Shown one piece after another: positions 1 through 30,887 of a DNA stretch of 64,000 nucleotides (position 1 is its first letter; every line of letters begins with the position of its first letter). The stretch covers positions 182,539 to 246,538 of the forward strand of contig CAZNEE010000003.1 in assembly GCA_964572255.1 (NCBI GenBank), written 5' to 3'. Origin of the DNA: an uncultured Planctomycetia bacterium (GTDB lineage: Bacteria; Omnitrophota; Gorgyraeia; Tantalellales; Tantalellaceae). A program made the translations under genes and the position numbers. The notes under the pieces are model-generated. The model worked only from the letters and a program-made list of their open reading frames with translations. It was not told the DNA's origin and ran no database searches.

Positions 1-3000
1 CTTCACTTATATTAAAAAACGGATCGGCAGGTGTAACAGCCTTATTGACAACTTCCATGACGTCGGCATTGATGCCGAAGAAATCCACATCCATCTCGCC
101 GTCCGCAAGTTTTTCGGTATAGAGAAGGTCCCCCGTCTGGTCTCTGTGGTAAGTAACATCCATGAACTCGGGATTCGTGGCTGCCTCGTAATCCTTGACT
201 CCTGTCGCGACGATACCGCGTACATTATTGATCTCCGCCAAAGCCTGGATTGCCGTGGCATACGCCACTGAAAGTGCATTTCTTGCATCTATCACCAGAT
301 CCAAAAGATCGGGTTCCTCTCCGTCGATCTGATCCCATTGATCCAAAGCATCCTGAATGTCGCTTACAGCATCTGCGGTCTTTTGTTTTAAGGCGATATA
401 TGCGGGGTTGGAAGGATCCCTGTTAAGAATCTCCTGTGCCTTTTGATCGGCTGTCTGTGCTTTTGTTAAAGCTGCTGATAAAACATTTATTATCTGCCAG
501 GCTAACTGCTGCCCTTCGTTGGTTTCATACGTAATTTTGATACCAAAAGGACCGGTTATAGTGTGAGTTGTGCCATACCAGCCGTTATATGTCCCATAAT
601 CATTAATCCACTCTATGATCTCGTCGGCGGCCTCAATAACATCATAATAATACCAAGTGCCTGTAAAAATATCTCCCCAGAAATACGAAACTGTCTCCGA
701 TTCAAAATACGTGTTAACGACGCTTGATAAATTGATCAGCGCATCAGCATCAAGATCATTATTGTCTATATAAACTTCGCTCTGCAGAAGTTCGTTGATC
801 GTCTGAGTATCACCGCTTAAGACTGATCCTCCGACTTTTTCTATATGTTCGGCCGCTATCTCGTAGCGTATATCATATTCTTCCGGATCATAGGCATCCG
901 CATCTGTTGCCGGCGGATATGAATCATAGGTGTATGTATGTACTTCCGTGGATTCGACGGAATTATCGCTATCGGTAAGATATTCCGTTATCGTGGTCGA
1001 TTCTATCTGAAGCGGAGCATGAGCCGGATTAGATATATCAGTATCGCTGATATTAAAGACATTGACAGTGGTTGTTTTTCTCACGGCATCGCCGTCAATT
1101 ATGCCGTCATTATTTTGATCCGCGTCCCCATAATAATCTTCAGTGGTTCTTTCACTAAGGACTTTCGTCATGGACGGATAAGCCAGGCTGTAACCTTCCT
1201 CTTGAGACTGCCTGCTTGAAAGAGGATCCTCAAAAGTACTGGTCATCCTTCTGGTTGTGTGTATTATCTCTTCTTCGGTGGTTTCGCCAAAATCCCTGAC
1301 ATTGCCGGACTCAATAACTTGACTTACGAGATTGCCTCTCTCGTCATATTCCTCGGCCAACGTGCGTGAAAAGTCTATTGAACCGACATTTACGCCATAA
1401 TTTATTCCTGTATCAGTATTCAAAATGCCAACATGGTAGTAATTTCCCACAAGCCGGTCTATCCATCCCCAGTCTCCTGCGCCGGCAATAAGCGCATCGT
1501 ATTCAGTTTCATATCCCTGATGATCATGGTAGTTCATGATCAGATGCTTCAAATTAAAAGCCTCTCCACCGCCCTCGACCAGATGATAATTGTATGTTTC
1601 CCCTTCTATAAATGTCGGGTTCACCAGAGATTCGCCTACCTTGTCGTATTTTATGCTGGAAGTCGTTTTGGTGACCATGCCGGGCTGAGAAATACCCTGC
1701 GTGACACTGTTTATGTACGCGACATCCCCTCCGGCCTCAGTTGTATAGACAGTTGTAACTTCGGTCATGAGCATCTTATCCAAAGACATTTCTGAACCCT
1801 GAAGAAAGAGGAGATAGTCATCTTCATGCGTGTTATAAAGGTTGACGACCTGATCATAAATACCTTCAACTTCAGGTATAACAAGATCGATCTGATCTTC
1901 CAGTTCCTGTAACCTGGGTGAAATGTCCGCTATAACAGCGCTGTCAAGCGGCCATGGTGTGATCCAATAACTGAGTATCACATTGCATTCATCTGCCATG
2001 CTTTCAACTGCATCTATAGCATCCTGTAAAGTTTGAACAAAATCAGACGAAGGATCCAGCTGAGCAATTTCCTGCGCCAAAGGAAGTCTGTTTGTTAACA
2101 TGGTTGAAATGTTCGAAAGAAAATTCAATGCATTATTAATATCATTCATCATCCTCAAGAACTCTTGTTCCTTATTTTCCCAATTTCTATTTATAGCGCT
2201 AACTATCTGATCGTGCGCTGTATCTAAATAAGGTAAAACACCGGCTTCCATGGGAGGATCCATCGGAACAACATAAAATAACGCGTCCCGTATTTCTCTG
2301 CTGTTAACAGCTATTTGATAACTTGCCTCAAGCGCGGCTTCATCAAATTCTTCATATTCTATTCTTCTTGAGAATATGTTGCGGTCTTTTTCGTCATATT
2401 CCATATCATGCATCTCGAAATGATATGTCTGGTCGCCGCGTCTTCCGGATTCCTCGTAACTGGCGATATTGCCGTCTTCGTTATAGGTGATATTTTCCCT
2501 GGTAAATTCGTAATACATGCCGGTAGAAGTCCTGCCCTCTTCGCTGAACTGCATCATCTTGCCGTCAGCGTCATAATAGATATCCGATCTCACGCTCTGG
2601 AAATACCTGAGGTCGCCTTCAAAGGTCCTTATGGTCTGTACGTCCGTATAATCGGTACCGGCTTCGTGAGCTCTCTTGTAGCCCGTCTCGGTGCCGGGAT
2701 CGAACCATCCGTCACCGTTAAGGTCATCGTAATACAGATATATGGCGGTATTGGAAACATAATCCATCCCGTTCTCGTCATGAGTGTAATACGCTATCAT
2801 GTCGGTGGATTCTTCTCCCACCCCGCCCTTATAGTATGTTTCACTCGATAGGACCACGCCGTAAGTCTGTCCGAAAATAACCAGTTCTATAGCTCTTGAT
2901 ATCTGCCCCAAATGATATTCGCCGTAAGTTTGCCCCGGCAAAAGAACTCTGGCGTTGTCCAGAGCTTGAAGCAATGGATCAAGAAAATCCCGGTCCGCTT

Positions 3001-6000
3001 CGCCCCTGTCATGAAGATCGGTCACCCATGCTATAGCCTGATCAAGGGCATTTTCGCCCTGGTTATAGTCTTCGTCCTCAAAATAGGTATATGCGTCTTC
3101 AAGTGTTGTTCTGATAAGATCCAATTCGCTTGAAATTTCGTCAGCTGCAAAGCGCGATACGACCTTGGCCATGTAATCGCTCCTTGAGGCGTTCGAGGCT
3201 GTCGTGTAATCTGCCGCGTACAAATACTGGTTGATGTGGAGCTTGTTCACCGGATCACCCGATGTGTAGATCCAGGCATAATCGGATATTTCCTCGTTGT
3301 AATCTCCAATAAAGAAGGTCTTTGACCTTCTGCCTGTCGTGTAATCGCTGTGGACGAGAGGCACAATATCGGTTATCAGATCGCCTTCCAATAGTTTCTC
3401 TGTATTAAAAGTGGTCGAACTTACCTTCGGCGTTTCAAATACGGTATCGGAAGCCCTCTGTTGACCGTCCCCGTAGAAATTGACAGTGATCTGAGTATTG
3501 TCAAATTCATCCGGCCCGGGGGCCCCGCGGCCTTCCTTGCTGTAACTGATGGTGTAGTCGGCTATCTCATAACTCAAGGCTCCAACAAACCATGTTTCGG
3601 TCCTTCTTAAAGCGGGCGGTTCATTAACCGCATTAATAACGCCGTTATCCTCATCTATATCCAGGCCCTCTTTCTTGTTATATGTAACTGTGTGGGTCAA
3701 AGCGCCTGTAGCGGCATCATCATAGTAATAAATGGTCGTATTTCTGATGTTCGTCCCGTCCGTCCTGTACGCGTAAATCCAGAGAACCTGTTCCTCTCCT
3801 CTTTCCTCGTTCCTGTAATACGTAGCCTGCTGGAGGGTGTCGGCAATATCGGTGCCCCTTCTGGTCTCGCTCTTTGTCATGAACGACTCTTCGCTGACGC
3901 CTTCTTCATCCGCCAAGCTGTATCTTCCTTTTAGAGGATCGAAATTGAAATAATAATACCAGGTGCGGTTATCGATGGTCTCACCGTCGCGCTTATAATT
4001 GTCCGTATAATGTGATAATTCCGCGCCCGCATAACCGTGATAATAAGTCTCGCTTATCTTCATGACCGCATCCGGATCGGCTATACTAAAAGTGCCCAGG
4101 TCAGTATCTACGCTTAATCCCAGTTCCTTCCTGTAGACCGTACTTATCTCCATGCTACCGTCAGGCCTGTAGGTGTATTTACTTGTCGTCTTCACGGTAG
4201 TGCCGTCATACCTGTATTCCTGGCTCCAGTTCAGCCTTTCCTCGCCTTTTTCCTCGCCCTCGTAATAAGAGATCTGTTTTACAGCTAAGGGATCGGTGCC
4301 TCTGACCGTTATCGACCTGGTCATGTAAGAATCGGACCTTATGTCGGGAGCAGTGGCTTCGGTGTATCTTCCGGCATCAGTATAATAATAGTACCAGGTA
4401 CGGGTGAATACTGATTCATCCGGCAGGAATACATCGGTATAATCCGTTATTTCATCGCCCTTGCCGCCTGAATACCATGTCTGGCTTCTCTTCGCGCCAA
4501 GCGCCGCGGACGGCGGTATGGTATGCGGGTTATCACTGTCAGGAGTCCTTACAACATCGTCTTTATATATCGTAGTGTACTTAAGGCTGTTATCGTTCGC
4601 GGGATCATAGACATACAGAGTCGTAGTCCTGACCTCTTCACTGGCATTGTAATCCTGGCTGAATGAGATCCTCTCTTCGCCTTTTTCATCGCCCTCGTAA
4701 TAAGAGATCTGTTTTACGGGTGAAGTAAGTTCATCATCGCCTCTTGTAGTTATAGTCCTTGTCAGATACGATGCAGGCCCTATTCCCGGCGTGCTCGCGC
4801 GGGCGTACTTATGATCATCATCCGAATCATTGATAAAGTAATAGTACCATGTGCGCGTGGTAAGAGCGTTATTGCGGAAGCTGTCGGTGTAATCGATGAT
4901 CTCTTCGCCCCTATCGCCGTGATAGACCGTTTCACTCTTCTTGTCCAAAGTGAATACTTCAGCTTCCGGGCCCAGTTCAGGCGGTTCGACCCCCAGATCC
5001 TGGAACCGTTCTTCACCGTCAATATATATCGTGCTCTTCTGGAGGCTGTCATCAGGATTGTAGGTATAAACCGTAGTAGTCCTAACCTGCGTGCCGTTAA
5101 AGCTGTATTCCTGGCTCCAGGAGATCTGCTCTTCACCTTTTTCGGCGTTCTTGTAATAAGAGACCTGCGAGGTATACTGGCCGCTTTGCCTTATCCTTAC
5201 GTTTATGGTCCGGGTGATATATGAATACACCTCAGCATCCGCGGCCTGTGTGTACCTGTCCGAATCCGTATTATAATAATAAGTGATCTTACTATCCTCT
5301 ATATCGTTCTTGTAGTTGATGACATAGTCTATTATTTCCTCGCCTCTTTCCAGCTGATAAAAAGTGCGGCTTTCTTTTTCGAGGCTAAGCGCAACAGGAT
5401 CGGGGGCAGGTGCGGGATCGCCCGGCGCTGCCGGACCCCTTTCCGTATCGTCCTTGTAGACCGTTGTCCGCACTAATCTGTCATCAATGTTGCCGTATTC
5501 ATATATGGTCGTTGTCTTCACGTTTTCGTTGAAATTGTATTCCTGGGTCCAGCGGATCTGTTCTTCGCCTTTTTCCGTGCCTATGTAATAAGCTGCCTGC
5601 TTTAATTTATTAACACCCGCGGGATCTCTTCTTGAGATGGTCTTCGTCATGTAGGAATCTACATTGATCTGCGTATCAGACGCTTCGGCGTACCTATTTG
5701 CATCGCTGGCAAAGTAATAATATTTAGTGCGTACCGATTCTATTCCGTTAGTGTAGCTGCTTGCGTAATCGGCGATTTCTTCTCCTTTATCGCCTACAAA
5801 AACCGTCATGTTTCTTCTTACGGCATCGTCATCGCCCAGGCCGTCTTCATCTATCGCTACAGTGCCTGAAGTGTAGTCCGCGACTATGCCAATTTCGTCC
5901 CTATACACTACGGTTGATACTAGCGCATCTTCCGCGTCATAATTATAATTAGTCGTTGTCTTGATGGCTGTCGCGAGGTAATTATATTCCTGGCTCCAGG

Positions 6001-15000: not shown

Positions 15001-18000
15001 TATCCTGCCGGATCAAAGCATCCTCTACGCTGGCCAGAGATGCCCTCTTTTCGCCCTGGTAATAGAAAACGCCTATTGATCTCACTGACACCCCGTCGCT
15101 GCCATAGGTGTAAGAGAAGTCCGCTATTTCGTCTCCCTTGCCGAGATGAATATCAAAGAAGGTCGAACTCTTGCGGTTGGTTTGGGCGACCTTGAAAATT
15201 GAATCTGTCTTGTGTGTATCCTGCTGGATCATCGCGTCTTCTACGCCTGCTTCGCTTGCCCTCTTGCCGCCCTGATAGAAGAAAATACCTACGTTTCTTA
15301 CTGTAGTTCCACCTCCCGCATAATTATAGCTATAGTCTACTATTTCTTCACCCTTGCCGAGATGTATATCAAAGAACATTGAGCTCTTGCGGTTGGTATC
15401 AGCTATTTTAAAAATTGAATCCGTCTTATGTGTATCCTGCTGTACTAATGCGTCTTCTGTCCCCGCTTCACTTGCCCTCTTTATGCCCTGATAATAGAAA
15501 ACACCCACACTTCTTACGGTCGTTCCGTCCAAGCTATAGGTGTAGGTATAATCCGCTATCTCGTCGCCTTTGCCATACGTCGTATCAAAGAAAGTTGAAC
15601 TTATACGGTTAGAAACGGCACCCTGAAAAATAGAATCTGTCTTGTGTGTATCCTGCCGGATCATCGCGTCTTCTGACTCCGCTACGCTTGCTCTCTTGTC
15701 TCCTTCATAATAGAACACTCCCACTGTCCTTACCGTTGTCCCGTCACCTGCATAGTTATAGCTGTAATCGGCTATTTCGTCGCCTTTCCCGAGATGTATA
15801 TCAAAAAAGGTTGAACTCTTGCGGTTAGTATCAGCGATCTTGTATATTGAATCCGCCTTATGTGTATCCTGCTGAACCATCGCGTCTTCCGATCCGGCAA
15901 GAGATGCCCTATTATCATCCTCGTAATAAAAGACATTAACCGTTCTTACGGTCGTACCGTTAGAAGCATAGGTATAGGAATAATCCGCTATTTCGCCGCC
16001 TTTGCCGTGAGTTATATCGAAGAAAGTCGAACTTCTTCGGTTCTCCTTGCTTGCCTCATTAATAAAGGAAATAGCATCCGATCCGGCATGACCTTCTGTA
16101 GCCTTATATGTGTCCTGCTGGATCATCGCGTCTTCCGTTCCGGCAAGAGATGCCCTATTCCCTCCCTCGTAATAGAAAATACCTACGTTTCTTACTGTAG
16201 TTCCATTGCCCGCATAATTATAGGTATAGTCTGCTATCTCTTCGCCTTTACCGTGATGTATATCAAAAAAGGTTGAACTCTTGCGGTTAGTATCAGCGAC
16301 CTGAAAAATAGAAGCTATCTTGTGGGTATCCTGCTGGATCATCGCGTCTTCTACGCCCGCTAAAGACGCTCTCTTTGCGCCCTGATAATATAGAACACTC
16401 ACGGTTCTTACTGTAGTACCGTCGCCGCCGTAATTATAGGTATAGTCCGCTATCTCATCGCCTTTTCCGAGATGTGTTTCAAAGAAGGTAGAACTCCTGC
16501 GGTTAGCCAAAGCTGCATTGCTGATCAGACCTGTTTTATGCGTATCCTGGCGGCTGAGAGCATCTTCCACTTCTGCCAGAGACGCTCGTTTATCCCCTTG
16601 ATAATAAAATACGCCTACTGTTCTTACGGTAGTTCCGTCGCCCGCATAATTATAAGTATAATCGGCAACTTCCTCGCCTTTACCTAAATGTATATCGAAA
16701 AAGGTCGAACTTACCCGGTTAGTATCGGCGACTTTGTAAATTGAATCTGTTTTATGGGTATCCTGTCGGATCATCGCATCTTCCGGTCTTGCCAAAGATG
16801 CCCTTCTTTCCCCTTCAAAGAAGAAGATGTTTACAGTCCTTACGGTTGTTCCGTCACCGCCGTAATTATAGGTATAATCTGTTATTTCTTCGCCTTTGCC
16901 GAGATGTATGTCAAAGAAAGTGGAGCTCTTGCGGTTGGCATCGGCTATTTTGAGGATAGAATCGGTTTTGTGCGTATCCTGGCGGATCATCGCGTCTTCC
17001 GATCCCGCAAGATTGGCTCTATTGTCTCCCTCGTAATATAAGACAAGAACATTTCTGACCGTTGTGCCGTCACCGGCATAGCTATAAGTATAATCCGCTA
17101 TTTCGTCACCTTTACCCAGGTGGATATCAAAGAAAGTGGAGCTTTTGCGGTTGGTATCGGCAATATTGTAGATCGAATCTGCTTTATGCGTATCCTGACG
17201 AACAAGAGCATCTTGCGAACCTACTTCGCTTGCCCTCTTTTCGCCTTCGTAATATAGAACAGATACCGTCCTGACCGTTGTTCCGTCACTTGCGTAACTG
17301 TAAGTATAATCCGCGACTTCGTCTCCCTTACCCAAATGGATCTCAAAGAAAGTGGAACTTTTGCGATTAGTTTTATTGACTTCATCTACATAATCGATCG
17401 CATCCTGATCCGTGTGATCTTTGTCTGCCGCATACGTATCCTGCTGGATCATCGCGTCTTCCGCTTCCGCAAGATCAGCTCTCTCGCCTCCCTCGTAATA
17501 CATTATTCCTATAGTCCTTACCGTGGTACCGTTAGACGCATAGCTATATGTATAATCCGCTATTTCTTCGCCTTTACCGAGATGAGGATCAAAAAATGTA
17601 GAGTTTACCCTATTATCCAGCGCTATTGTTCCTATTGAATCTGTCCTGTGCATATCCTGACGAACAAGGGCATCTTCATGCTCCGCCAAACTTGCTCTTA
17701 CATCTCCCTGATAATAAAAAACTCCCACAGTTTTTACAGTTGTTCCGTTGGAAGTGTAATTGTAGATGTAATCCGCTATTTCTTCGCCTTTACCGAGATG
17801 TATATCAAAGAAGGTTGAACTTGTACGGTTATCTAAAGCGACATTCGAAATTGAATCCGTTTTATGGGTATCCTGCTGGATCATTGCGTCTTCCGAACTG
17901 GCTTCGCTTGCCTTCACATTGCCCTGGTAGAAGAAAATACCGACCGTTCTTACGCTTGTTCCGTCGGACGCATAGCCATAGTTATAATTTGCGATCTCAT

Positions 18001-21000
18001 CGCCTTTGCCGAGATGTATATCAAAAAAGGTTGAACTTGTGCGGTTCTCATCCTTTACATTGTCGATCGAATCCGTCCTATGTGAATCCTGCTGGATGAG
18101 GGCGTCTGTTACTTCCGCTAAACTTGCTCTTACATCATCCTGATAATAGAAAACCCCCACTGTTCTTACAACCGTACCGGTACTGTCATAATTGTAAGTG
18201 TAATCCGCGACTTCATCTCCCTTGCCGAGATGTACATCAAAGAAAGTCGAACTTCTGCGGTTATCTAAAGCGACTTTTGAAATTGAATCTGTTTTATGAG
18301 TATCCTGCTGTACCATCGCGTCTTCCACTTTTGCAAGAGACGCTCTTACATCCCCCTCATAATACATAACACCAACAGTTCTCACTGTAATGCCATCACT
18401 TGCATAATTATAGGTATAATCCGCTACTTCCTCACCCTTGCCGTGATGTATATCAAAGAATGTTGAGTTTGTTCGATTGGCATCTTCTACTGCACTGATC
18501 GAGGTAATGTTATGAGTATCTTGTCTGATCAAAGCATCATCTGTTCCTGCCAGAGATGCCCTATTGTTACCTTCATAATACATAACACTTACTGTTCTTA
18601 CGGTCGTTCCGTCACCTGCATAATTATAGGTATAGTCGACTATCTCGTCTCCCTTGCCGTGATGGATATCAAAGAAAGTGGAATTTTTACGATTGGTATC
18701 CGCAATTTCGTAAATCGAATCTGCTTTGTGGGTGTCCTGCTGGACCATCGCGTCTTCCAAGCCCGCTTCACTCGCCCTTACACCGCCCTGATAGTAGAAA
18801 ATACCTACCGATCTTACGGTCGTTCCGTCATTCGCGTAGGTATAAGTATAGTCTGATATCTCATCGCCCTTACCGAGATGTATATCAAAGAAGGTCGAAC
18901 TCTTTCGGTTTTCCTCGGCAATACTGTTAATTGAGTCCGTCTTATGCGTATCCTGCTGGATCATCGCGTCTTCCGCTACCGCAAGAGACGCTCTTACATT
19001 CCCTTCATATAAGAAAACGCCCACGGTTCTTACTGTTGTGCCGTTAGATGCGTAACTATAGGAGTAATCTGCTACCTCATCGCCTTTACCGAGATGAATA
19101 TCATAATATGTTGAACTTCTGCGGTTATCTAAAGCGACATTGCCGATCGAATCTGTTTTATGGCTATCCTGGCGTATCATCGCGTCAGCAGCTCTTGCAA
19201 CGCTTGCTCTTCTTTCCCCTTCATAATAGAAAACACCTACTGATTTCACATTTACACCGTCAGAATAACTATAGGTATAATCCGCTATTTCCTCGCCTTT
19301 CCCGAGATGTATGTCAAAGAAAGTCGACGCCTTACGGTTTGAATTGTTTACGTCTCCAATAGTGTCTGCCTTGTGTGTATCCTGCTGAATAAGCGCATCG
19401 TCCGCTCCTGCAAGATCCGCTCTATTCCCTCCCTCGTAATAGAAAACCCCTATTGACCTTACTACTGTTCCGCCCGCTCCATAAGTATAGGTATAATCCG
19501 TTATTTCATCGCCCTTACCAAGATGAGTGTCAAAGAAAGTCGAACTTACGCGGTTATCATTCTCTACTAAGTCGATTGATATGGTTCTGTGGGTATCCTG
19601 CTGGACCAATGGATCATCCACTCCGGCCAGGCTTGCCCTTACGCCTCCATCGTAGAAGAAAACACCTACGGTTCTTACGGTCGTCCCATTAGAAGCATAG
19701 CTATAAACATAATCCGCTATTTCATCGCCTTTACCTAAATGTATATCAAAGTATGTAGAACTTTTCCTGTCTTCAAAAGTCGTGTCGTCAACTTCATCTA
19801 TAGACGATTTCCGGTAGCTATCCTGACGGACCATTTCATCGTTCGTACTGGCCAGACTTGCCCTTATCTCGCCGTTATAATAGAACACGTTCACTGTTCT
19901 TACATCCGTTCCATTACCCGCATAGTTATAAGAATAATCCGCTATTTCCTCGCCCTTGCCGTTATGAATATCGAAAAAGGTGGAGGATCTTCTTGTTTCA
20001 ATGTCATCTAACGCATTCTGCAGTGAATCCGCCCTGTGTGTATCCTGCTGGATCATCGCATCTGCCAGAAAAGCTGCACTTGCCCTTTTGTCCCCTTCAT
20101 AATAGAAAATCCCGACGCTTGTAACGGTCGTGCCGTTAGAAGCGTAACTATACGTATAATCAGAAACTTCCGAACCCTTCCCTAAATGTGTATCAAAACG
20201 TGTCGTGGATATTCTCGTATCGATATTATTGACAGCTTCAGTTATTGATGCGGCATCATGTGAATCCTGTTTAGATAGCGGGAAATAACTTTCAGAAACG
20301 GAAGCCCGGTCGTCATTATCCCCGTAATAAAGGATGTTCACGGTTTTTACCGTCACGCCGTCCGGTTTATAGCTGTAGGTAAAATCCCCGATCTCTTCAC
20401 CCTTGCCGAGATGGATATCAAAAAAGGTGGACGATTTTCTTGTAGTAATATCGGCCAACGCGGATGCCAGTGAATCTGTTCTATGAGAATCCTGCTGGAT
20501 CATCGCATCTTCCGGAGTTGCATCTACGGCCCGCTTATCACCTTCGTAATAATATATACTCACGTTCTTGACCACAGTCCCGGTTTTATCATAATTGTAA
20601 GTATAATCCAGGACCTCTTCACCTTTTAGCCTTGTCGCAAAATCGAAAAATGAAACACTGTCGAGCTGGCTTACATGCGCATCGATCACGCCGTCAGGTT
20701 CGGTATCCGGGTTTAGCGGATCGATCTGGCCTCGATACGTTACCTGTCTGCTCATGCGGTCACCCGTATCGGAACCGGCTGCTCTTTGAAGGCCGGCTTC
20801 GTATAAATACACTACCGTTCTCGAAACCTCCTGGTCGGCATTATATCTTTCGGTATAGTCGTTAATTTCCTCGCCCTTGATCCTTCCTTCATAATGCATG
20901 TAATTCATGCTTGAGAGCTGTTCTTCCGCGCCGACCAAGATGCCTCTTGCGTCCGTAGCGGCCTGGATATCGGCAATTTCTCCGGAATAAACTACATTGA

Positions 21001-23524
21001 GGCTATTCCTGTCAGTCACTGAAGCTCCGGCGGCTCTTAGGCCCTCCTCATAATAATGAATAGTTGTGGTGGCAATATCCTGAAGAGAATTAAAGGTAAG
21101 GGTATAGTCGGCGACTTCTTCGCCTTTTTGCCTGGTTTCGTAATCAAACCATGTCAAACTTGAGCGTTTAGTGTCGTCAAGAGGATCTGTGATACCGCCG
21201 TTATACACAACATTCTGGCTCATCTTATCCAGAACGCCGGCGTCTTCCGCCCTTACTCCATTGGGTCCGTATAAATAAACTGTCGTGGATTTCACATCCC
21301 CGTTACGGGTATATCTTTCACTGTAATCCACTACCTCTTCGCCTTTAAGACGGCCGTCAAAATCATAATAGGTGATAGAATCAACTTTATCTTCAAATCC
21401 GACTAAAGTGCCGTCGGGATTAACTGCCGCATCCATATCTACCGGATCGGGGCCCCGGTATGTGACAACGAGGCTTAATCTGCTCTCGACATCGACATCG
21501 GGCGAAGAAGCTTTATAATGATCTGCCTCATAAAGATATACCGTGGTCGAGACAAGGTCCTGTCGCGAGTTATATTTTTCAGTATGGCTTCTTACCTCTT
21601 CCCCTTTATCCCTGTTCTCATGATCAAAATATGTTATGCTCACCAGGTCCTCTTCATACCCGTCCAGCTTGCCGTCGGCAGGAGCCGCATCTGCCGTATC
21701 CGGAGGGATCTCCCCGCGGTACTGAACGGTCTTGGCCATCTTATCATCGGGCTCGGCAAATTCCGCTCTTATCACATTGCCGGTCAAATCTCCCGTAGTA
21801 AGATCCCGTTCAGCGTAGTAATAAAATGTCGTATCTGTCGGGATGCCGCCTGTTGTGTACTGGATAGTATAATCCGCGGTCTCCTCACCTTTAAGCCTGC
21901 CGATAAAATAATAAAAAGTGGCCGATTTCATTTTCGCGTCAGGATCGATATTGCTATCCTCATCCACGGCATCACCCCAATAAGTGATCGACTTCGACAT
22001 GGGCATATAGGGAGGCGCATCGGCGGCGCGCAGCTCCTCTTCACCATAAAAATAAACTGTCTCTTCTACCACTTCGCCATGCGAATAAGTCTCGGTATGG
22101 TCAAGCACTTGCTCATCCGCAAGGCGGTTCTCGGTATGATAATATGCTATATTCATGATCCTGTCTAAGTATTCATCATCGATCTGGCCGTCGCCGTCTT
22201 TATCAATATCGTCAGGGTCGACTTCCCCCTCAAAGGTAACGACTTTCTCCTGCGGATCGCTCGGATCCGCATCTTCTGCGCGTTTTCCGCCGAGATAAAA
22301 GGTGACCATCGTACGGGCGACTTCGCCGTTTTCTCTGAATGTCTGCGTATAGTCCTGCATTTCTTTATCTACTTCACCGGTATAATACGTTATGCTTGTC
22401 AGGACACCTGTACCATCCAGTAAAGCGTCCGCGTCACTAACATCTCTTGTTGAGTAAGTCCTTACCTCCCTTAATATCCTTTCCTCATCCCCCTCATCAT
22501 ATGGGTCGCCGTTCTCGTCCACGTAAACAAATTCCTGTCTGGTGGTTATCTTGCCCGTTATCTTATCGCGGGTTATGCGCATGGCGATCCTGTTCATATC
22601 GCCGTCCCCGTCAAAGAACGACTCTTCAATAAGTATCCAGCCGTCCTTACTTTCATCTTCGGGATCTTTCCCTCTTATGTAATATTTAAGGGTTTTTGAT
22701 ATATCATCGCCGTCGTACTCATAATCCGTGCGGTAAACCGGCTCGTATTCTTCAGCGCCTTCAGTATCCGGGTGCAGGTCCAGCGCATATCCGGAAAGGA
22801 TATGATCTATCTTCTCCTCATCCAGCATGCCTACATAGACAGTCTCTCTGATCTTGTGCTCATCTTCCGGATTATCAACATCGCGATACCCTATCCAGTA
22901 TTCCTCCCCTGTTTCCTCGTTTATTGTCTTTGTCGCGCCTGGCTCCCATCTTCTCCAGTCCTGAAGTGACTGGCGCGTAATATCGAAGGTCTCTATTTTT
23001 GAAAGGGTTTTCTGGTCTTCTAAATACTGCAGGTCGTTAAAAAGGTGCATATCCTCAATGGGGTCCTGCCCTGTCATGGTATATTCCGGTGAACCGACCC
23101 CGCCCGAAGAACCCTGTTTTTTCTTAAGGGGCACCGCTTCTTCCCCTTCTTGAACAGGTCTATCGAGAAGCTCCATCAGATCTTCCTTGCCCATTCTCTG
23201 ACGGATGATATCTTCGTGTCTTCTCTGCTGGCGTTTTAAATGAGACGGTGAGAAACGGTTTGTCTTGTCATATTCTTCCGGGGTAGGCAGGAGTTCTTCC
23301 GCAACACCGCTTTTTCTCTGATACCTATAAACATCTGAGAAACCTGTCTGCTGGATAAAAAATATAAATGCAACAAAAAAGGATATGGTTCTTAACCATA
23401 TCCTTTTTCTTCGAGCGGTTTGAACCTCGATAAAACCGCCTGTATATAAAGAATCATACCCGGTATCTCCGGTCATATGATCCGCTGAATAGACACTATT
23501 CTTTTTATCACCATTATTCTTCAT
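1..23524 (-). CDS. Giant repeat-rich protein with an N-terminal signal-anchor. Partial: the C-terminal end lies beyond the left window edge.
   Basis: I translated the minus strand by hand from the ATG (complement of 23522-23524) to position 1. It is one uninterrupted frame of 7,841 codons with no stop. An in-frame TAA lies 9 codons upstream of the ATG. The SD-like AGGTG (complement of 23529-23533) sits 4 nt upstream of the ATG. Protein-like periodic sequence is conserved through ~57 tandem copies. The gene is absent from the supplied ORF track only because it has no stop inside the window. Confidence 0.85.
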   Translation of the reverse strand, partial: MKNNGDKKNSVYSADHMTGDTGYDSLYTGGFIEVQTARRKRIWLRTISFFVAFIFFIQQTGFSDVYRYQRKSGVAEELLPTPEEYDKTNRFSPSHLKRQQRRHEDIIRQRMGKEDLMELLDRPVQEGEEAVPLKKKQGSSGGVGSPEYTMTGQDPIEDMHLFNDLQYLEDQKTLSKIETFDITRQSLQDWRRWEPGATKTINEETGEEYWIGYRDVDNPEDEHKIRETVYVGMLDEEKIDHILSGYALDLHPDTEGAEEYEPVYRTDYEYDGDDISKTLKYYIRGKDPEDESKDGWILIEESFFDGDGDMNRIAMRITRDKITGKITTRQEFVYVDENGDPYDEGDEERILREVRTYSTRDVSDADALLDGTGVLTSITYYTGEVDKEMQDYTQTFRENGEVARTMVTFYLGGKRAEDADPSDPQEKVVTFEGEVDPDDIDKDGDGQIDDEYLDRIMNIAYYHTENRLADEQVLDHTETYSHGEVVEETVYFYGEEELRAADAPPYMPMSKSITYWGDAVDEDSNIDPDAKMKSATFYYFIGRLKGEETADYTIQYTTGGIPTDTTFYYYAERDLTTGDLTGNVIRAEFAEPDDKMAKTVQYRGEIPPDTADAAPADGKLDGYEEDLVSITYFDHENRDKGEEVRSHTEKYNSRQDLVSTTVYLYEADHYKASSPDVDVESRLSLVVTYRGPDPVDMDAAVNPDGTLVGFEDKVDSITYYDFDGRLKGEEVVDYSERYTRNGDVKSTTVYLYGPNGVRAEDAGVLDKMSQNVVYNGGITDPLDDTKRSSLTWFDYETRQKGEEVADYTLTFNSLQDIATTTIHYYEEGLRAAGASVTDRNSLNVVYSGEIADIQAATDARGILVGAEEQLSSMNYMHYEGRIKGEEINDYTERYNADQEVSRTVVYLYEAGLQRAAGSDTGDRMSRQVTYRGQIDPLNPDTEPDGVIDAHVSQLDSVSFFDFATRLKGEEVLDYTYNYDKTGTVVKNVSIYYYEGDKRAVDATPEDAMIQQDSHRTDSLASALADITTRKSSTFFDIHLGKGEEIGDFTYSYKPDGVTVKTVNILYYGDNDDRASVSESYFPLSKQDSHDAASITEAVNNIDTRISTTRFDTHLGKGSEVSDYTYSYASNGTTVTSVGIFYYEGDKRASAAFLADAMIQQDTHRADSLQNALDDIETRRSSTFFDIHNGKGEEIADYSYNYAGNGTDVRTVNVFYYNGEIRASLASTNDEMVRQDSYRKSSIDEVDDTTFEDRKSSTYFDIHLGKGDEIADYVYSYASNGTTVRTVGVFFYDGGVRASLAGVDDPLVQQDTHRTISIDLVENDNRVSSTFFDTHLGKGDEITDYTYTYGAGGTVVRSIGVFYYEGGNRADLAGADDALIQQDTHKADTIGDVNNSNRKASTFFDIHLGKGEEIADYTYSYSDGVNVKSVGVFYYEGERRASVARAADAMIRQDSHKTDSIGNVALDNRRSSTYYDIHLGKGDEVADYSYSYASNGTTVRTVGVFLYEGNVRASLAVAEDAMIQQDTHKTDSINSIAEENRKSSTFFDIHLGKGDEISDYTYTYANDGTTVRSVGIFYYQGGVRASEAGLEDAMVQQDTHKADSIYEIADTNRKNSTFFDIHHGKGDEIVDYTYNYAGDGTTVRTVSVMYYEGNNRASLAGTDDALIRQDTHNITSISAVEDANRTNSTFFDIHHGKGEEVADYTYNYASDGITVRTVGVMYYEGDVRASLAKVEDAMVQQDTHKTDSISKVALDNRRSSTFFDVHLGKGDEVADYTYNYDSTGTVVRTVGVFYYQDDVRASLAEVTDALIQQDSHRTDSIDNVKDENRTSSTFFDIHLGKGDEIANYNYGYASDGTSVRTVGIFFYQGNVKASEASSEDAMIQQDTHKTDSISNVALDNRTSSTFFDIHLGKGEEIADYIYNYTSNGTTVKTVGVFYYQGDVRASLAEHEDALVRQDMHRTDSIGTIALDNRVNSTFFDPHLGKGEEIADYTYSYASNGTTVRTIGIMYYEGGERADLAEAEDAMIQQDTYAADKDHTDQDAIDYVDEVNKTNRKSSTFFEIHLGKGDEVADYTYSYASDGTTVRTVSVLYYEGEKRASEVGSQDALVRQDTHKADSIYNIADTNRKSSTFFDIHLGKGDEIADYTYSYAGDGTTVRNVLVLYYEGDNRANLAGSEDAMIRQDTHKTDSILKIADANRKSSTFFDIHLGKGEEITDYTYNYGGDGTTVRTVNIFFFEGERRASLARPEDAMIRQDTHKTDSIYKVADTNRVSSTFFDIHLGKGEEVADYTYNYAGDGTTVRTVGVFYYQGDKRASLAEVEDALSRQDTHKTGLISNAALANRRSSTFFETHLGKGDEIADYTYNYGGDGTTVRTVSVLYYQGAKRASLAGVEDAMIQQDTHKIASIFQVADTNRKSSTFFDIHHGKGEEIADYTYNYAGNGTTVRNVGIFYYEGGNRASLAGTEDAMIQQDTYKATEGHAGSDAISFINEASKENRRSSTFFDITHGKGGEIADYSYTYASNGTTVRTVNVFYYEDDNRASLAGSEDAMVQQDTHKADSIYKIADTNRKSSTFFDIHLGKGDEIADYSYNYAGDGTTVRTVGVFYYEGDKRASVAESEDAMIRQDTHKTDSIFQGAVSNRISSTFFDTTYGKGDEIADYTYTYSLDGTTVRSVGVFYYQGIKRASEAGTEDALVQQDTHKTDSIFKIADTNRKSSMFFDIHLGKGEEIVDYSYNYAGGGTTVRNVGIFFYQGGKRASEAGVEDAMIQQDTHKTDSIFKVAQTNRKSSTFFDIHLGKGDEIADFSYTYGSDGVSVRSIGVFYYQGEKRASLASVEDALIRQDTHKTDSILKIADTNRKSSTFFNTHLGKGSEIADYTYSYAGDGTTVRTVGVMYYEGDKRASVAGPEDALIYQDSHKTNSIGNVALDNRINTTFFDIHLGKGDEVADYTYTYASDGTTVRTIGVFYYQGGKRASEASSEDAMVQQDTHRAGSIYDIAETNRKSSTFFAVQHGKGEEITDYSYSYGSDGTTVRTVGVFYYVGGKRATLAESEDELIQQDTHKVDSIYKVAETNRRNSTFFDIHLGKGDEIADYSYNYSSNGTTVRTVGVFYYEAFKRASEASSQDAMIRQDTHKTNSIYSVTLTTRRSSTFFDVDHGKGNEIADYLYSYGGDGITVRTVSVFYYQGDIRASEAETEDALIRQDLHKTSAIDKIKYANRKSSTFFNTRFGKGDEIADFSYNYAGDGTTVRTVAVLYYEGGNRASGAAIEDAMEQQDTHKADSIYDIAQTNRKNTTFFATQLGKGEEIADYSYTYGLDGTTVRIVGVFYYHGGKRATLAEADDPLIRQDTHKIDSIFNIADTNRKSSTFFDTHLGKGDEIADYSYNYAGDGTTVRTVAVFYYEGETDPVRADLANVEDAMVQQDTHKIDSIYNVTTTTRRSSTFFDIHLGKGDEIADYNYSYGGDGEFVRTVGVFYYEGEPDPVRASLASVEDALVRQDTHKAGSIDLVENANRKSSTFFDTTHGKGEETADYSYNYGYDGSTVRTVSVFYYTGEKRASLSDPEGALIRQDTHIATSIWEVAQSNRKSSTFFNTRFGKGDEIADYSYSYASDGATVRNVSVMFYQDGKRASLASTEDALIQQDTHKTDSILKIANTNRKSSTFFDHRFGKGDEIVDYTYTYAGDGTTVRTVGIMFYQGAKRASEAEIEDALIQQDTHKTDSILNVALSNRKNSTFFDIHLGKGDEIADYTYNYGYDGETVRSIGIFYYKDTTALRASLASTEDAMVQQDTYKTTEGHTGSDAILFIDEVNKTNRKSSTFFDIHLGKGNEISDHTYNYGGDGVSVRSVGVFYYSGEKRASLAEAEDLLIRQDSHNASSVDLIAEGNRKSSTFFDTHLGKGDEIADFTYNYASDGTTVKTVGIFYYEGDKRAISAGSEDAMIQQDSYQTEEGERGDDAIDFIDTGTKEGRKSSTFFSIRFGKGDEVSDYTYSYASGGTIVKTVGIFYYQGIKRANEASSEDAMVRQDTHKTDSILNVSLSNRRNSTFFDIHLGKGDEISDYTYNYGVGGTVVRTVGVFYYQGDNRASVAGSQDALIRQDTYKVSHITQVNDATKEYRKNSTFFDIHLGKGSEIVDYTYNYGGDGTSVRSVGVFYYQGEKRANTAEADDVLIRQDTHVAASVDLAENANRKSSTFFDAHIGKGDEIADYTYSYGNDGTTVKTVGVFYYEGNKRASLASDEDSLIQQDTYEVGGIGEVNDTTKENRKSSTFFDITYGKGDEIADYTYSYALGGTIVKTVGVFFYDDNKRAGEASSEDALMKQDSHRADSILSITDTTRRSTTFFDVRLGKGDEIADYTYNYASDGTTVRTIGIFYYQGERRASEAGTEDAMIQQDSYKAAEGFTDQDAVDHIDIATKKERRSSTFFDIHFGKGGEIADYIYNYGSDGTSIRSVGVFYYYGEKRAFLAESEDVLIRQDTHITDSIDNIAIINRKSSSFFDAHLGKGDEIVDYTYNYGGDGSTARTVGVFYYLGEKRASESGVEDVMVRQDTHVATSIGEISEDNRKSSTFFDANLGKGDEIADYTYTYASDGTTVITVGVFFYEGGVRASAAGIEDAMIRQDTHKTDSILNISITTRRSSTFFDTHLGKGDEVSDYTYNYAADGTTVRTVGVFFYQGDKRASEANTSDAMIQQDTHKADSIFAAAVSNRKSSTFFYTGLGKGEEISDYTYTYGGDGATVRTVGIFYYQDTTQVRASLASTEDAMVQQDTYKTVVGFTGEDAINYIDEENKTNRKSSSIFDIHLGKGNEIVDYTYNYGGDGISVRTVGVFYYSADAKRASLVEAEDVMVRQDTHVTNSINTIADTNRRSSTFFSTVLGKGDEIADYSYSYRSDGTTARTVNIFFYQGGVRASEAGTEDAMIKQHTYETTSILLVADTNRKSTTFFDIHLGKGDEIVDYSYGYRSDGTTVRSVSISYYWGGKRASLAESEDAMIQQDSYKAVEGHEGDDAIQFIDEENKTTRTSSTFFDTRFGKGDEIADYSYGYKKGGTTVRTISIFYYQGEVRASLAGTEDAMVRQDTHKAFSIGEVAISNRRSSTYFDIHIGKGNEITDFTYNYAANGTTVAEVSIFYYVGEKRASAAEADDAMIRQDTYKATAGFTGEDAVDHIDPANIKSSTFFDIHLGKGDEIADYSFNYKNTIVTSRTTYFYHTDADNFARASDAGVTIDSYMTMTEARRGAFTTSSLKQVAYFRGDEKGEEQIAWSQEYKYHIEEVITTTIYEYNTDDSMKRSTVYKDDTVRIPSAPDYLAPDPGTLGLVKKSETWFQGDKGDEIADYTDMFKEDGTEIDVRTTYFYRTDSNRYEGAALASLDPNSYMTKSRAVRDPLGTQRLRQISYYENEERGEEQTAWSQEYNYMGDEVRTTTLYAYNSDGSMQSSTVYKDDTERGPPGVLDPAPRPDPADLGIKLSRTVFAGYKGEEIADYTDSFTASEDVYTRTRYFYYSPADRYARATETGVSPDSFMTMSEVRRGTDPAGALKQISYYENEEKGEEQVSWTQEYDYTGSNVITTTIYTYDPDDRNLKFTSVYKDDEVRTPESKNPKVDPPVVPVPPLGVLKSQTWFVGDKNEEIANYTDNYKGDGTTTDTRTYFYYFVDNTDKYIRATDSRVNPDSYMTKSVIIRDPLGADPRMKQVSYYRGDVKGEEQVDFSQDYKYDGLTVKTTTIFDYNDATDGSMKSSTVYKDTVERTPESDYPRTIPPSADLGAIKSQTWFVGGKGEEISNYTDNYKLSGNFDTRTWYQYHTDAERYAYATDSDIRPDSYITRTVTRRGQAPDALIKQETYYKNPVKGEELISWSQEYNYLATAIKTTTNYNYDAEDALVSTVVYRDEIGIVADYTSGTVAIDEDGLGDDDAVRRNMTVFVGDKGEEIADYASSYTNGIESVRTKYYYFASDANRYAEASDTQINVDSYMTKTISRRDPAGVNKLKQAAYYIGTEKGEEQIRWTQEYNFNENVKTTTIYEYGNIDDRLVRTTVYKDDTERGPAAPGDPAPAPDPVALSLEKESRTFYQLERGEEIIDYVINYKNDIEDSKITYYYNTDSDRYTQAADAEVYSYITRTINVRIRQSGQYTSQVSYYKNAEKGEEQISWSQEYSFNGTQVRTTTVYTYNPDDSLQKSTIYIDGEERFQDLGVEPPELGPEAEVFTLDKKSETVYHGDRGEEIIDYTDSFRNNALTTRTWYYYFINDSDDDHKYARASTPGIGPASYLTRTITTRGDDELTSPVKQISYYEGDEKGEERISFSQDYNASEEVRTTTLYVYDPANDNSLKYTTIYKDDVVRTPDSDNPHTIPPSAALGAKRSQTWYSGGKGDEITDYTDVFLPDESVFTRTWYYYYTDAGRYTEATAPDIRSDSYMTRSITVRGTDPLAVKQISYYEGEEKGEERLNWSQEYRYDGTTVKTTSKYTYRPDGSMEISTVYRKELGLSVDTDLGTFSIADPDAVMKISETYYHGYAGAELSHYTDNYKRDGETIDNRTWYYYFNFDPLKGRYSLADEEGVSEESFMTKSETRRGTDIADTLQQATYYRNEERGEEQVLWIYAYRTDGTNIRNTTIYYYDDAATGALTHTVTYNKKEGLDIDEDNGVINAVNEPPALRRTETWFVGALSYEIADYTISYSKEGRGAPGPDEFDNTQITVNFYGDGQQRASDTVFETPKVSSTTFNTEKLLEGDLITDIVPLVHSDYTTGRRSKTFFIGDYNEEISDYAWIYTSGDPVNKLHINQYLYAADYTTASNASRSDYMAKVVSRFAADEISSELDLIRTTLEDAYTYFEDEDYNQGENALDQAIAWVTDLHDRGEADRDFLDPLLQALDNARVLLPGQTYGEYHLGQISRAIELVIFGQTYGVVLSSETYYKGGVGEESTDMIAYYTHDENGMDYVSNTAIYLYYDDLNGDGWFDPGTETGYKRAHEAGTDYTDVQTIRTFEGDLRYFQSVRSDIYYDADGKMMQFSEEGRTSTGMYYEFTRENITYNEDGNIASYEESGRRGDQTYHFEMHDMEYDEKDRNIFSRRIEYEEFDEAALEASYQIAVNSREIRDALFYVVPMDPPMEAGVLPYLDTAHDQIVSAINRNWENKEQEFLRMMNDINNALNFLSNISTMLTNRLPLAQEIAQLDPSSDFVQTLQDAIDAVESMADECNVILSYWITPWPLDSAVIADISPRLQELEDQIDLVIPEVEGIYDQVVNLYNTHEDDYLLFLQGSEMSLDKMLMTEVTTVYTTEAGGDVAYINSVTQGISQPGMVTKTTSSIKYDKVGESLVNPTFIEGETYNYHLVEGGGEAFNLKHLIMNYHDHQGYETEYDALIAGAGDWGWIDRLVGNYYHVGILNTDTGINYGVNVGSIDFSRTLAEEYDERGNLVSQVIESGNVRDFGETTEEEIIHTTRRMTSTFEDPLSSRQSQEEGYSLAYPSMTKVLSERTTEDYYGDADQNNDGIIDGDAVRKTTTVNVFNISDTDISNPAHAPLQIESTTITEYLTDSDNSVESTEVHTYTYDSYPPATDADAYDPEEYDIRYEIAAEHIEKVGGSVLSGDTQTINELLQSEVYIDNNDLDADALINLSSVVNTYFESETVSYFWGDIFTGTWYYYDVIEAADEIIEWINDYGTYNGWYGTTHTITGPFGIKITYETNEGQQLAWQIINVLSAALTKAQTADQKAQEILNRDPSNPAYIALKQKTADAVSDIQDALDQWDQIDGEEPDLLDLVIDARNALSVAYATAIQALAEINNVRGIVATGVKDYEAATNPEFMDVTYHRDQTGDLLYTEKLADGEMDVDFFGINADVMEVVNKAVTPADPFFNISE
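3550..7940 (-). repeat. About 10 in-frame tandem coding repeats of ~440 bp (~146 aa) inside gene A.
   Basis: The unit recurs 10 times with consensus (T)RT[WY][YF]YY..D..RY..A.D....PDSYMT[KR][ST]...R....A....KQ[IV]SYY.N.EKGEEQ[IV]SWSQEY.Y.G..V.TTT.Y.Y..DDS...[ST]TVYKDD..R.P, followed by a Pro-rich linker and ..SQTWF.G.KGEEI.[DN]YTD.[FY]. Modules start RTTYFYHTDADNF, RTTYFYRTDSNRY, TRTRYFYYSPADRY, TRTYFYYFVDNTDKY, TRTWYQYHTDAERY, RTKYYYFASDANRY, KITYYYNTDSDRY, TRTWYYYFINDSDDDHKY, TRTWYYYYTDAGRY and NRTWYYYFNFDPLKGRY. Confidence 0.75.
7940..20640 (-). repeat. About 57 in-frame tandem coding repeats of 216 bp (~72 aa) inside gene A.
   Basis: Translation gives a repeated unit with consensus ~TVRTVGVFYYQGDKRAS[EL]AGxEDAMIQQDTHKTDSIxxIADTNRKSSTFFDIHLGKGDEIADYTYNYAGDG. 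I counted 57 occurrences of the FFDxHLGKGxEIADY[TS]YxY core. Antisense shadow ORFs across 8-20 kb show the same periodicity. Copies are ~70% identical at the DNA level but strongly conserved at the protein level. Confidence 0.85.
20640..22000 (-). repeat. Degenerate, longer (~100 aa) relatives of the 72-aa module at the N-terminal side of gene A.
   Basis: Segments such as VDSITYYDFDGRLKGEEVVDYSERYTRNGDVKSTTVYLYG, SSMNYMHYEGRIKGEEINDYTERYNADQEVSRTVVYLYEAG and DSVSFFDFATRLKGEEVLDYTYNYDKTGTVVKNVSIYYYEG share the core [FY][FY]D...R.KGEE[IV].DYT..Y.....V..T.VY.Y. Confidence 0.45.
23338..23407 (-). other. N-terminal signal-anchor / transmembrane helix of gene A.
   Basis: Residues ~40-62 read RRKRIWLRTISFFVAFIFFIQQTGF. 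A basic stretch is followed by an ~20-aa hydrophobic segment after a ~40-aa N-terminal tail. Confidence 0.5.
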
Positions 23525-23912
23525 TTCACACCTACTAGCTTCCAGCACTTATTTATATCAAAGTTAAATACTTTTATTAATACTTTATAAAAAACTTAAA
23601 TAACATGCATAAAAAAAAGAGATTTCCACATCTCTCCCCTTTTTCCTGATACAGTATAATTATATCATATATATAGGTGAAATGCCTAAGAAAAAAATGC
23701 TAACTTTTTTTTACCTTACAAGACAGAGCTTAATAAGTATCCTTTTCCGGGATTATGAGTTATAAGTCCTTAAAAATGAAGAATTTAAGCAGCTAAATGT
23801 ACCTTTTTGTTGTTTTGCTTTTGCAATGAAAATTATTATCTTTCTCTAATACAGCTCGATCGTACCATAATATTTCTTGTTCTTCCGATAAACTTTAGCT
23901 ATACTTTATGCG
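23525..23912. promoter_or_regulatory. AT-rich divergent intergenic region between gene A (minus) and the glycosyltransferase gene (plus). It probably holds both promoters.
   Basis: 388 bp, very AT-rich, non-coding in all frames. On the minus strand an extended -10-like TGATATAAA (complement of 23551-23560) lies ~27 nt upstream of the gene A ATG. TATAAT-like motifs occur on the plus strand (for example cagTATAATtat near 23653-23658). A short AT-rich hairpin AGAGAT-ttccac-ATCTCT at 23618-23635 is followed by a T8 run on the minus strand. Confidence 0.35.
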
Positions 23913-25976: not shown

Positions 25977-26078
25977 CCTCTTCTTAACAATAACTTCTTC
26001 TTTTAAAAAACCAAAATAAATGCAATTAGCTGTCTAGCTTTTTATTGCCTTAATTAGAAAAAAGTTCTATTATTTTTC

Positions 26079-26107
26079 TTGAACTAATGTGTTAAGAGGA
26101 TTAAAAT
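26079..26107 (+). promoter_or_regulatory. Candidate sigma70-like promoter for the HEAT-repeat gene.
   Basis: TTGAAC (26079-26084), a 17-nt spacer, then TAAAAT (26102-26107). It lies ~95 nt upstream of the ATG at 26201 in an AT-rich 224-bp intergenic region. Confidence 0.3.
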
Positions 26108-26200
26108 ATAGCTAGTTAAAGAACAAAAAGTGTTCTCTCATATAAAATATCAATATATTTAATATTGTTCATTATTAATATAAAAACGAAAGAGAGTAAT

Positions 26201-30829: not shown

Positions 30830-30854
30830 GAAATTATCCCTGGGTGGGAATGAC

Positions 30855-30887
30855 ATAAAAAACCAGGCTGCTCAAAAGAGCAGCCTG
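30855..30887 (-). terminator. Rho-independent terminator for giant gene D. It may also act in the other direction.
   Basis: A perfect 11-bp GC-rich stem, CCAGGCTGCTC (30862-30872) / GAGCAGCCTGG (30877-30887), with a 4-nt loop AAAA. On the minus strand the stem is followed by U6 (complement of the A-run 30855-30860). It lies 133 nt downstream of the gene D stop (31020) and 26 nt downstream of the 26201..30829 stop. Confidence 0.55.

Follow-up and report, generated by a model that had tools for sequence, protein, structure and literature searches.

The stretch of DNA considered here (the window) comprises 64,000 nucleotides of contig CAZNEE010000003.1 (positions 182,539 to 246,538 of its forward strand, assembly GCA_964572255.1), from an uncultured bacterium that is labeled Planctomycetia and placed by GTDB in the Omnitrophota. 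Its left 23.5 kb are taken up by one giant gene on the minus strand, giantA, and a second giant gene on the same strand, giantB, lies further to the right. The two frames jointly cover 56.5 of the 64 kb, in agreement with a first-pass annotation of the sequence, according to which at least 56 kb of the window encode just two proteins. GiantA is a real, intact coding sequence under purifying selection, and it belongs to a definable Omnitrophota family with a conserved N-terminal head. The two genes and the start of giantA are located as follows.

2..23524, minus strand: giantA, whole visible part, 7,841 codons without a stop, C-terminal end beyond the window
23522..23524, minus strand: ATG start codon of giantA, read directly from the sequence
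23529..23533, minus strand: AGGTG, Shine-Dalgarno-like motif 4 nt ahead of the ATG, read directly from the sequence
31020..63998, minus strand: giantB, at least 10,992 codons, with the frame 31023-63998 open to the right edge

The Reading Frame of GiantA

Translation of complement(2..23524) in a single frame gives 7,841 codons and 0 stops, as the first-pass annotation had described, and the other five frames across 1-23524 contain 186-626 stops each, with longest open runs of 65-229 codons. With the base composition of this strand, a stop-free run of 7,841 codons would arise by chance with a probability of about 1e-204. The frame leaves the window at position 1, so that the gene is cut by the window, and it is absent from the listing of open reading frames because it runs past the window edge. 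The ATG (23524-23522) and the AGGTG ahead of it (23533-23529) were both found where the annotation had placed them. Upstream of the ATG the frame stays open for 8 further codons, back to an in-frame GTG at 23548, which is a possible alternative start; in an alignment of the N-termini, the N-terminal tails of giantA homologues are similar in length and composition to that of giantA. The visible protein has a mass of about 880 kDa, a pI of 4.5 and a net charge of -593, is rich in Asp (10.2%), Thr (9.8%) and Tyr (7.6%), and contains one Cys. Two peptides had been quoted as parts of it, of which DAMIQQDTHKTDSI is present 3 times and FFDIHLGKGDEIADYTYNYAGDGTTVR has no exact occurrence, only close variants.

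Layout of the Visible Protein

The visible part of giantA can be divided into seven regions, all encoded on the minus strand.

23402..23524, minus strand: residues 1-41, basic N-terminal tail, predicted to be cytoplasmic, ending in FIEVQTARRKR (family motif FIEVQT-x-RRKR)
23339..23401, minus strand: residues 42-62, sole hydrophobic helix IWLRTISFFVAFIFFIQQT, signal anchor or cleavable Sec signal (G-F-S↓D)
22325..23338, minus strand: residues 63-400, conserved family head, from alignment A2 (ten heads)
20432..22324, minus strand: residues 401-1031, degenerate hairpin units (about 8) and Asp-rich (EF-hand/TSP3-like) linkers, from matches to the repeat hidden Markov model
8033..20431, minus strand: residues 1032-5164, array of 56 canonical repeats in tandem, each 72 residues long except for some of 75, 82 or 84
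3155..8032, minus strand: residues 5165-6790, about 11 modules of about 148 residues with two diverged hairpin units each (21 units)
2..3154, minus strand: residues 6791-7841, region of mixed make-up in which helical inserts and classical YD motifs (YDADGKM, YDERGNL) occur, cut by the window edge

The cytoplasmic tail and single signal-anchor helix of the first-pass annotation hold in so far as the tail is basic and exactly one hydrophobic helix follows it: the RRKR is succeeded by a hydrophobic stretch of 19-21 residues (from residue 42 to 60 or 62) with a Kyte-Doolittle value of 1.43, and no other segment of the 7,841 residues exceeds 1.2. The part of the claim that is less certain is the anchor. 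A small-x-small motif stands after the helix in giantA (G-F-S↓D) and in homologues (G-I-A↓D, A-Y-A↓A, V-W-A↓A), and since this conserved motif makes cleavage by signal peptidase possible, the protein may lose the helix as a signal peptide with a long n-region instead of keeping it as a permanent anchor. An interpretation of the 'FIEVQ' as a type IV pilin-like motif was rejected, as the Glu is at +3 and not at +5, there are charged residues ahead of the helix, and the preceding Gly lacks conservation.

The head is marked by the motifs LLPT..E, QQRRHEDIIRQ, PLKKK followed by a Gly-rich stretch, YTMT and YW(I/V)GY, and by the first YD-like hairpins. In the adjoining residues 401-1031 an EF-hand match stays below threshold. 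The canonical repeats have the consensus STFFDIHLGKGDEIADYTYNYAGDGTTVRTVGVFYYEGDKRASLAGSEDAMIQQDTHKTDSIxxIADTNRKS. Searched with a hidden Markov model of the repeat, giantA yields 85 units and giantB 0, and the related units of giantA span about 6,400 residues. The tens of Tyr/Asp-rich beta-type modules of the first-pass annotation thus correspond to about 85 counted hairpin units, the repeats of which are modeled by AlphaFold2 as antiparallel beta strands (see below). None of these regions matches a cataloged family: no Pfam family reaches E <= 0.1 anywhere in the 7,841 residues, and Pfam and NCBIfam together yield nothing significant for the whole protein or for short segments searched at E <= 10 (noise only).

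Selection on the Repeats and Integrity of the Assembly

An array of this length may raise the suspicion of an artefact, either because copy number or order of the repeats is misassembled, because the contig is a chimera, or because the gene is a non-expressed pseudogene that happens to stay open. The repeats themselves speak against this. Among the 56 canonical units the mean identity is 61% for amino acids and 64% for nucleotides (nucleotide range 47-78%), exact repeats in giantA reach 45 nt at most, and every 55-mer is unique, which leaves little for an assembler to confuse. Differences between repeats amount to 0.57 per site at the third codon position versus 0.26 and 0.24 at the first two, and where residues are identical across repeats, half of the codons differ. 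This third-position bias and the differing synonymous codons indicate old duplications kept under protein-level selection, and together with a stop-free frame of 23.5 kb they imply that selection continues. Moreover, the head, the repeats and the C-terminal region each have homologues elsewhere, in which the order is kept.

Independent assemblies support the right part of the gene. Three of them (JGI, ENA, Logan), located via the exact 687-residue product of the gene adjacent to giantA, match window positions 18429-31416 at 99.985-100% identity and reproduce the start region and the first 1,525-1,698 codons of giantA. The samples that contain the locus are JGI 3300018080, ENA ERZ27256796 and SRR14699969. 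Positions 1-18428 are covered by no independent assembly, and all three short-read assemblies end within the array at 18429-18948, about 500 bp apart. Errors in whole 216-nt units would preserve the open frame, and related metagenome assemblies hold frameshifts and at least one chimeric-looking contig. The exact number of repeats past codon 1,698 is therefore unconfirmed and should be seen as provisional, and an artefact or a dead gene as such is extremely improbable.

The right ends of the three assemblies, at 31204-31416, also lie close together (about 200 bp apart), inside giantB; strain variation inside the giant genes might be the cause of the common ends. The chimeric-looking contig (L026:2-3910, metagenome contig Ga0209253_10011490) carries a frame that opens with 67 residues of giantA-like repeat (69% identity) and switches in mid-unit to an unrelated protein with, as judged by eye, a HEIGH zinc-metalloprotease motif, a vWA-like region and a C-terminal sorting signal of the type IX secretion system (T9SS) type. 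This contig is probably chimeric.

A Family Defined by Head and Repeat

Among 1.84 billion cluster representatives, 205 proteins match a profile built from four repeats, 49 of them below 1e-30. Almost all are fragments, the longest among the matches listed having 3,898 residues. At least 24 of these representatives (150 of the 205 are listed) share the head of giantA, and the closest of them among the matches listed, P0005, is 58% identical over residues 31-1214. Alignment A2 was scanned against the contigs of one genome per GTDB species and identified 18 loci in 18 species, with 28-49% identity to giantA. Of these species, 13 are labeled Candidatus Omnitrophota, including Tantalella remota and Makaraimicrobium thalassicum, both of which NCBI also assigns to this phylum, and 5 carry the label 'uncultured Planctomycetia'; two of the protein matches are named Candidatus Omnitrophica/Omnitrophota by NCBI. 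The window has no marker gene, and these labels indirectly make an Omnitrophota source almost certain, though with identities below 50% none of the 18 species is the source itself. For five homologues (P0089, P0002, P0015, P0036, P0069) and two long homologous frames, Pfam returned ILEI, DUF5666 and noise only.

A word-indexed protein search gave just 4 matches for the head profile. For residues 6650-7841 it gave no match and missed the query itself, and for the giant frame of contig L022 (see below) it found nothing either, so that this search seems to be blind to such proteins.

What Probably Lies Downstream of the Visible Part

The leftward extension of giantA could not be followed directly, as its last 600 visible residues have no relative in the genome contigs or metagenome contigs searched. 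Several homologous proteins and frames, however, combine parts of giantA with parts that are seen in giantB. In the mixed region 6791-7841, residues 6891-7831 are homologous to P0089 and P0113, of which P0089 extends for about 1,200 further residues with YD-type motifs (YDSLGRII, YDIEGRQL). In P0015, a single reading frame passes from giantA-like repeats to modules that resemble the visible start of giantB. The same order is found in one frame in L022, where it fills the whole 11-kb stretch at one end of a 168-kb metagenome contig, and, weakly, in L024. The 1,255-residue protein P0036, encoded in the Omnitrophota contig L008, goes further: its N-terminal side consists of a giantA-like head and five units (46% identity), and its residues 727-1255 (L008:7529-9115) are homologous to the last 527 residues of giantB (30% identity, E 5e-46), with the junction at about position 7523 of L008. 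About 900 bp after P0036, another family head follows on the same strand.

The visible parts of giantA and giantB share no direct similarity, and simple aligned duplicates are ruled out by this result. On the simplest reading of the homologues, one modular architecture would comprise head, repeat array, middle modules and tail, and the window would show the tail of one family member (giantB) and then the head of the next (giantA), a tandem order that also occurs in the Omnitrophota genome of L008. Since homologues join the head to giantB-like modules and to the C-terminal domain, giantA is probably much longer than its visible part: it probably continues well past 7,841 residues, and by analogy the missing part probably includes giantB-like modules and the shared C-terminal domain.

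Fold of the Repeats

Four consecutive repeats of giantA were modeled by AlphaFold2 with an alignment made of the protein's own 53 overlapping four-repeat windows. The model (pLDDT 94.4, pTM 0.85) has 16 strands, with four antiparallel strands and short helical turns per 72-residue repeat, and the four repeats are confidently modeled as one continuous antiparallel sheet. A pseudo-alignment of twelve repeats was out of register and was not used. In a Foldseek comparison with the PDB, Rhs and teneurin YD-repeat proteins take the first eight places among the matches of the four-repeat model (E 3e-6 to 2e-4), and engineered single-layer sheets of OspA come after them; profile and sequence searches against PDB sequences gave no match. 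As modeled, the hairpin geometry of giantA is YD-like locally.

This likeness brings up the possibility that giantA is an Rhs/YD-repeat polymorphic toxin, in which one or more closed beta-cocoons would surround a C-terminal toxin destined for a target cell, as in Rhs effectors of the type VI secretion system or in the BC subunits of Tc toxins. Besides the hairpin geometry and the continuous antiparallel sheet, giantA shares with these proteins Tyr-x-Tyr-x-x-Asp-Gly-type motifs: each repeat contains YxYxxDGxxV, which is reminiscent of YxYDxxGRL. The classical YD motifs near the visible end and those in the continuation of P0089 point in the same direction, as does one sub-threshold match to RHS_repeat (PF05593), the best and only one in giantA (E 0.071, 14 bits versus a cut-off of 22). 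However, there is no significant RHS_repeat or YD_repeat match of Pfam or NCBIfam in the 7,841 residues or in homologues, and the DPxGL / PxxxxDPxG core or autoprotease motif is absent from visible giantA, the C-terminus of which lies beyond the window. The TM-scores to Rhs shells are just 0.13-0.19, and the array is about six times as long as a typical Rhs shell. A strict period of 72 residues with helical turns also differs from the irregular YD repeats of Rhs proteins, and the N-terminal helix is of Sec type and not a PAAR/VgrG-binding or TcB-type N-terminus. A toxin of this kind is thus quite unlikely.

Comparison with Giant Proteins of Omnitrophota

Giant genes are a hallmark of Omnitrophota, which are tiny bacteria that depend on a host, and most of these genes are unannotated and broken up in assemblies. 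Open frames of more than 20 kb were reported in 77 of 116 Velamenicoccia genomes, and a giant protein of 39,678 amino acids is cited for V. archaeovorus (Seymour 2023, PMC10066038). West-Roberts 2023 (bioRxiv 10.1101/2023.11.21.568195) speaks of 'large' proteins above 10,000 amino acids and of 'giant' ones from at least 30,000, and describes Omnitrophota proteins of up to 85,804 amino acids with numerous transmembrane helices and, in most, a divergent SecA DEAD domain. An Archaeovorin type, with glycosyl transferase/hydrolase, methyltransferase, NUDIX and peptidase domains, is distinguished there from a Dockerin type with dockerin and TSP3 repeats; in both types, tubules of antiparallel beta-helix are predicted that comprise about 1,500 residues, carry exterior helices at regular intervals and are called 'similar to Rhs' (section 10, Fig. 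5). A later catalog lists proteins of up to 147,155 amino acids, with a 'tandem-repeat scaffold' and a 'Pfam-dark' class, the latter making up 15% (Nielsen & Lui 2026, bioRxiv).

GiantA resembles these proteins in having an open frame of multiple tens of kilobases that fragments in short-read assemblies, in its phylum (by the labels of the homologues), in N-terminal thousands of residues without recognizable domains, in N-terminal membrane targeting and in old, diverged tandem repeats; its neighbor giantB carries their typical divergent SecA DEAD domain. The visible part differs from them in that it has no dockerin, TSP3, glycosyl hydrolase or transferase, C39 or S8 peptidase and no SecA DEAD or preprotein-binding domain, and in that it contains only one hydrophobic helix. 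Its 7,841 codons are a minimum and lie below the limit of 10,000 for a 'large' protein. In the catalog of Nielsen & Lui it would sit in the 'Pfam-dark' class.

The repeat model fits the 'antiparallel beta-helix tubule' described for Omnitrophota giants (West-Roberts 2023), with which it shares the antiparallel strands, regular short exterior helices, the resemblance to Rhs and the location in unannotated stretches. The array of giantA is about four times longer (about 6,400 versus about 1,500 residues), and the two are likened by description only.

Because open frames of more than 20 kb are common in Omnitrophota, the kind of gene that giantA represents is already known; giantA is a further example of the documented giant genes and leaves the overall picture of them unchanged. 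The window adds an unbroken 23.5-kb view of the head and repeat array of one family, the repeats of which are old and under selection and hence not assembly noise. New are the definition of this family, which occurs in 18 species or more and is marked by a conserved head and a YD-like unit of 72 residues, a confident local fold model for an unusually long array, and the modular combination of heads, arrays and tails, which also occur in tandem. Neither the head family nor the 72-residue unit is named in the passages covered of the papers on Omnitrophota giant proteins. The family is now searchable, and its peptides and a four-repeat construct are targets for testing surface filaments in host contact.

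Proposed Role of GiantA

On balance, we consider it somewhat probable that giantA is the 5' part of a giant cell-envelope protein, the array of which serves as stalk or scaffold for contact with a host or prey. The N-terminal helix would send the chain across the inner membrane and would then be kept as an anchor or cleaved. The acidic, Cys-poor array would fold into a long, stiff beta ribbon or a hollow 'antiparallel beta-helix' tubule which, at about 4.8 Å per strand, could exceed 100 nm when extended and would keep the parts of the protein that follow it at a distance from the cell. A role in host contact is inferred by analogy from the literature: Omnitrophota giant proteins have been proposed to act in adhesion, and peptides of the V. 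archaeovorus giant protein are up 3-fold in attached cells (Seymour 2023, PMC10066038; West-Roberts 2023).

A comparison can also be made with giant repeat adhesins. Adhesins such as LapA, SiiE and the Marinomonas ice-binding adhesin consist of Ig-like (Big) domains with C-terminal RTX repeats and are exported by type I secretion. GiantA would be like them in function only, as a long, acidic, Cys-poor tandem-repeat extension that places terminal binding modules far from the cell, and it is unlike them in that Pfam and NCBIfam detect no Big/Ig-like domain, RTX repeat or type I signal in its visible part.

Several points weigh against this proposal. The data from the window show no route for giantA across an outer membrane, and Omnitrophota belong to the PVC (Planctomycetes, Verrucomicrobia, Chlamydiae) group and are presumed to have two membranes. 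No catalytic or binding domain was found with Pfam or NCBIfam in giantA, as far as it lies in the window, or in homologues. All 18 genome copies of the family run off contig ends or break by frameshift and then run off, and no complete large family member was recovered; giant genes usually end up fragmented when assembled from short reads, and with all 18 copies incomplete the downstream architecture is pieced together from fragments. Among these, P0036 could be a true short paralogue or the assembly collapse of a giant gene. The gene neighborhood is not conserved either, as homologues adjoin RND or cation-efflux genes and not the TPR and HEAT genes found next to giantA. The four-repeat model was built on a pseudo-alignment of the protein's own repeats, and an eight-repeat AlphaFold2 model with an alignment of 13 rows reached a pLDDT of 50.5 and was discarded, so that the models speak for local geometry only and not for the overall shape of the array. 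To these points are added the low TM-scores to Rhs shells and the window positions left of 18429 that independent assemblies do not cover.

Some of these observations would suit a structural coat equally well. GiantA might be a scaffold that forms a sheath on the cell's own envelope, like the 'coat' proposed for Velamenicoccus, with no projecting stalk. The protein is extremely acidic and repetitive, has no recognizable binding or catalytic domain and just one visible membrane segment, and no passage of the outer membrane is evident, all of which would fit a coat. In homologues the repeats are followed by varied modules, as would suit a protein that carries functional ends better than one that forms a coat and nothing else. 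The present data fit both coat and stalk and do not separate them; we regard the coat as unlikely, though worth bearing in mind.

A bolder variant of the stalk starts from the tubule. In this case the array of about 85 units would form a continuous hollow beta-helical nanotube of more than 100 nm, which together with the SecA-like motor of the family tails could act as a conduit or harpoon for the exchange of material between the ultra-small cell and its host or prey. Such a single-polypeptide secretion or feeding tube would, if true, be unlike any known secretion system; we consider it a very unlikely outcome.

GiantB and Other Genes of the Window

The 10,940 codons that the first-pass annotation gave to the neighbor of giantA reflect a mechanical call from the GTG at 63842; the frame as such is open to the right edge over 10,992 codons, so that giantB is probably truncated too. 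The 52 codons ahead of the called GTG read, by eye, like the end of a folded domain. At about 38145-39941 giantB contains SecA_DEAD (E 2.5e-39), SecA preprotein-binding, SecA P-loop and PP-bind domains. About 10 of its segments pass a crude hydropathy threshold, not all of them convincing helices. The last 527 residues (31020-32600, minus strand) form the conserved C-terminal domain of the family, which has no Pfam match. Within giantB, 48356-49559 (minus strand) consists of tandem 195-nt (65-residue) units, Ala/Met-rich and helical by eye, in 6.2 copies with 76% identity; arrays resembling these units follow giantA-like heads in the homologues P0028 and P0052.

No tRNA gene and no Rfam family at the gathering threshold was found in the window (1-64000), and a scan for promoters gave sites no more numerous than in shuffled sequence.

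Two opposite-strand genes lie between giantA and giantB. The first (23913-25976, plus strand) is divergent from giantA, from which it is separated by a 388-bp spacer, and encodes a membrane protein with a weak PMT_2 (GT39-like) match in its N-terminal half and strong TPR repeats. The idea that this PMT-like glycosyltransferase is a dedicated partner that glycosylates the Ser/Thr-rich giantA was dropped, as the PMT/TPR gene is not found beside homologues. The second gene (26165-30829, plus strand) encodes a HEAT-repeat protein of 1,554 residues with signs of an internal duplication. Each of two internal hydrophobic segments leads into a lipobox-like Cys motif (LACFQLACGKKADK, VVSTASCKKADKD), a 'NILPLHPLS' membrane segment occurs twice, and the protein may have arisen by the fusion of two or three units that resemble lipoproteins.

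Elsewhere the neighbors of giantA homologues are of a different kind. In four Omnitrophota genomes (L010, L008, L013, L015) one or more RND efflux genes lie immediately upstream on the same strand. In L010 (1592-9525) these are, by Pfam, an HlyD-type adaptor and two AcrB-type pumps, and in L008 one AcrB is confirmed; the calls for L013 and L015 are based solely on reading frames of similar size. Upstream of the homologues in L012 and L021, a cation-diffusion facilitator takes the place of the RND genes.

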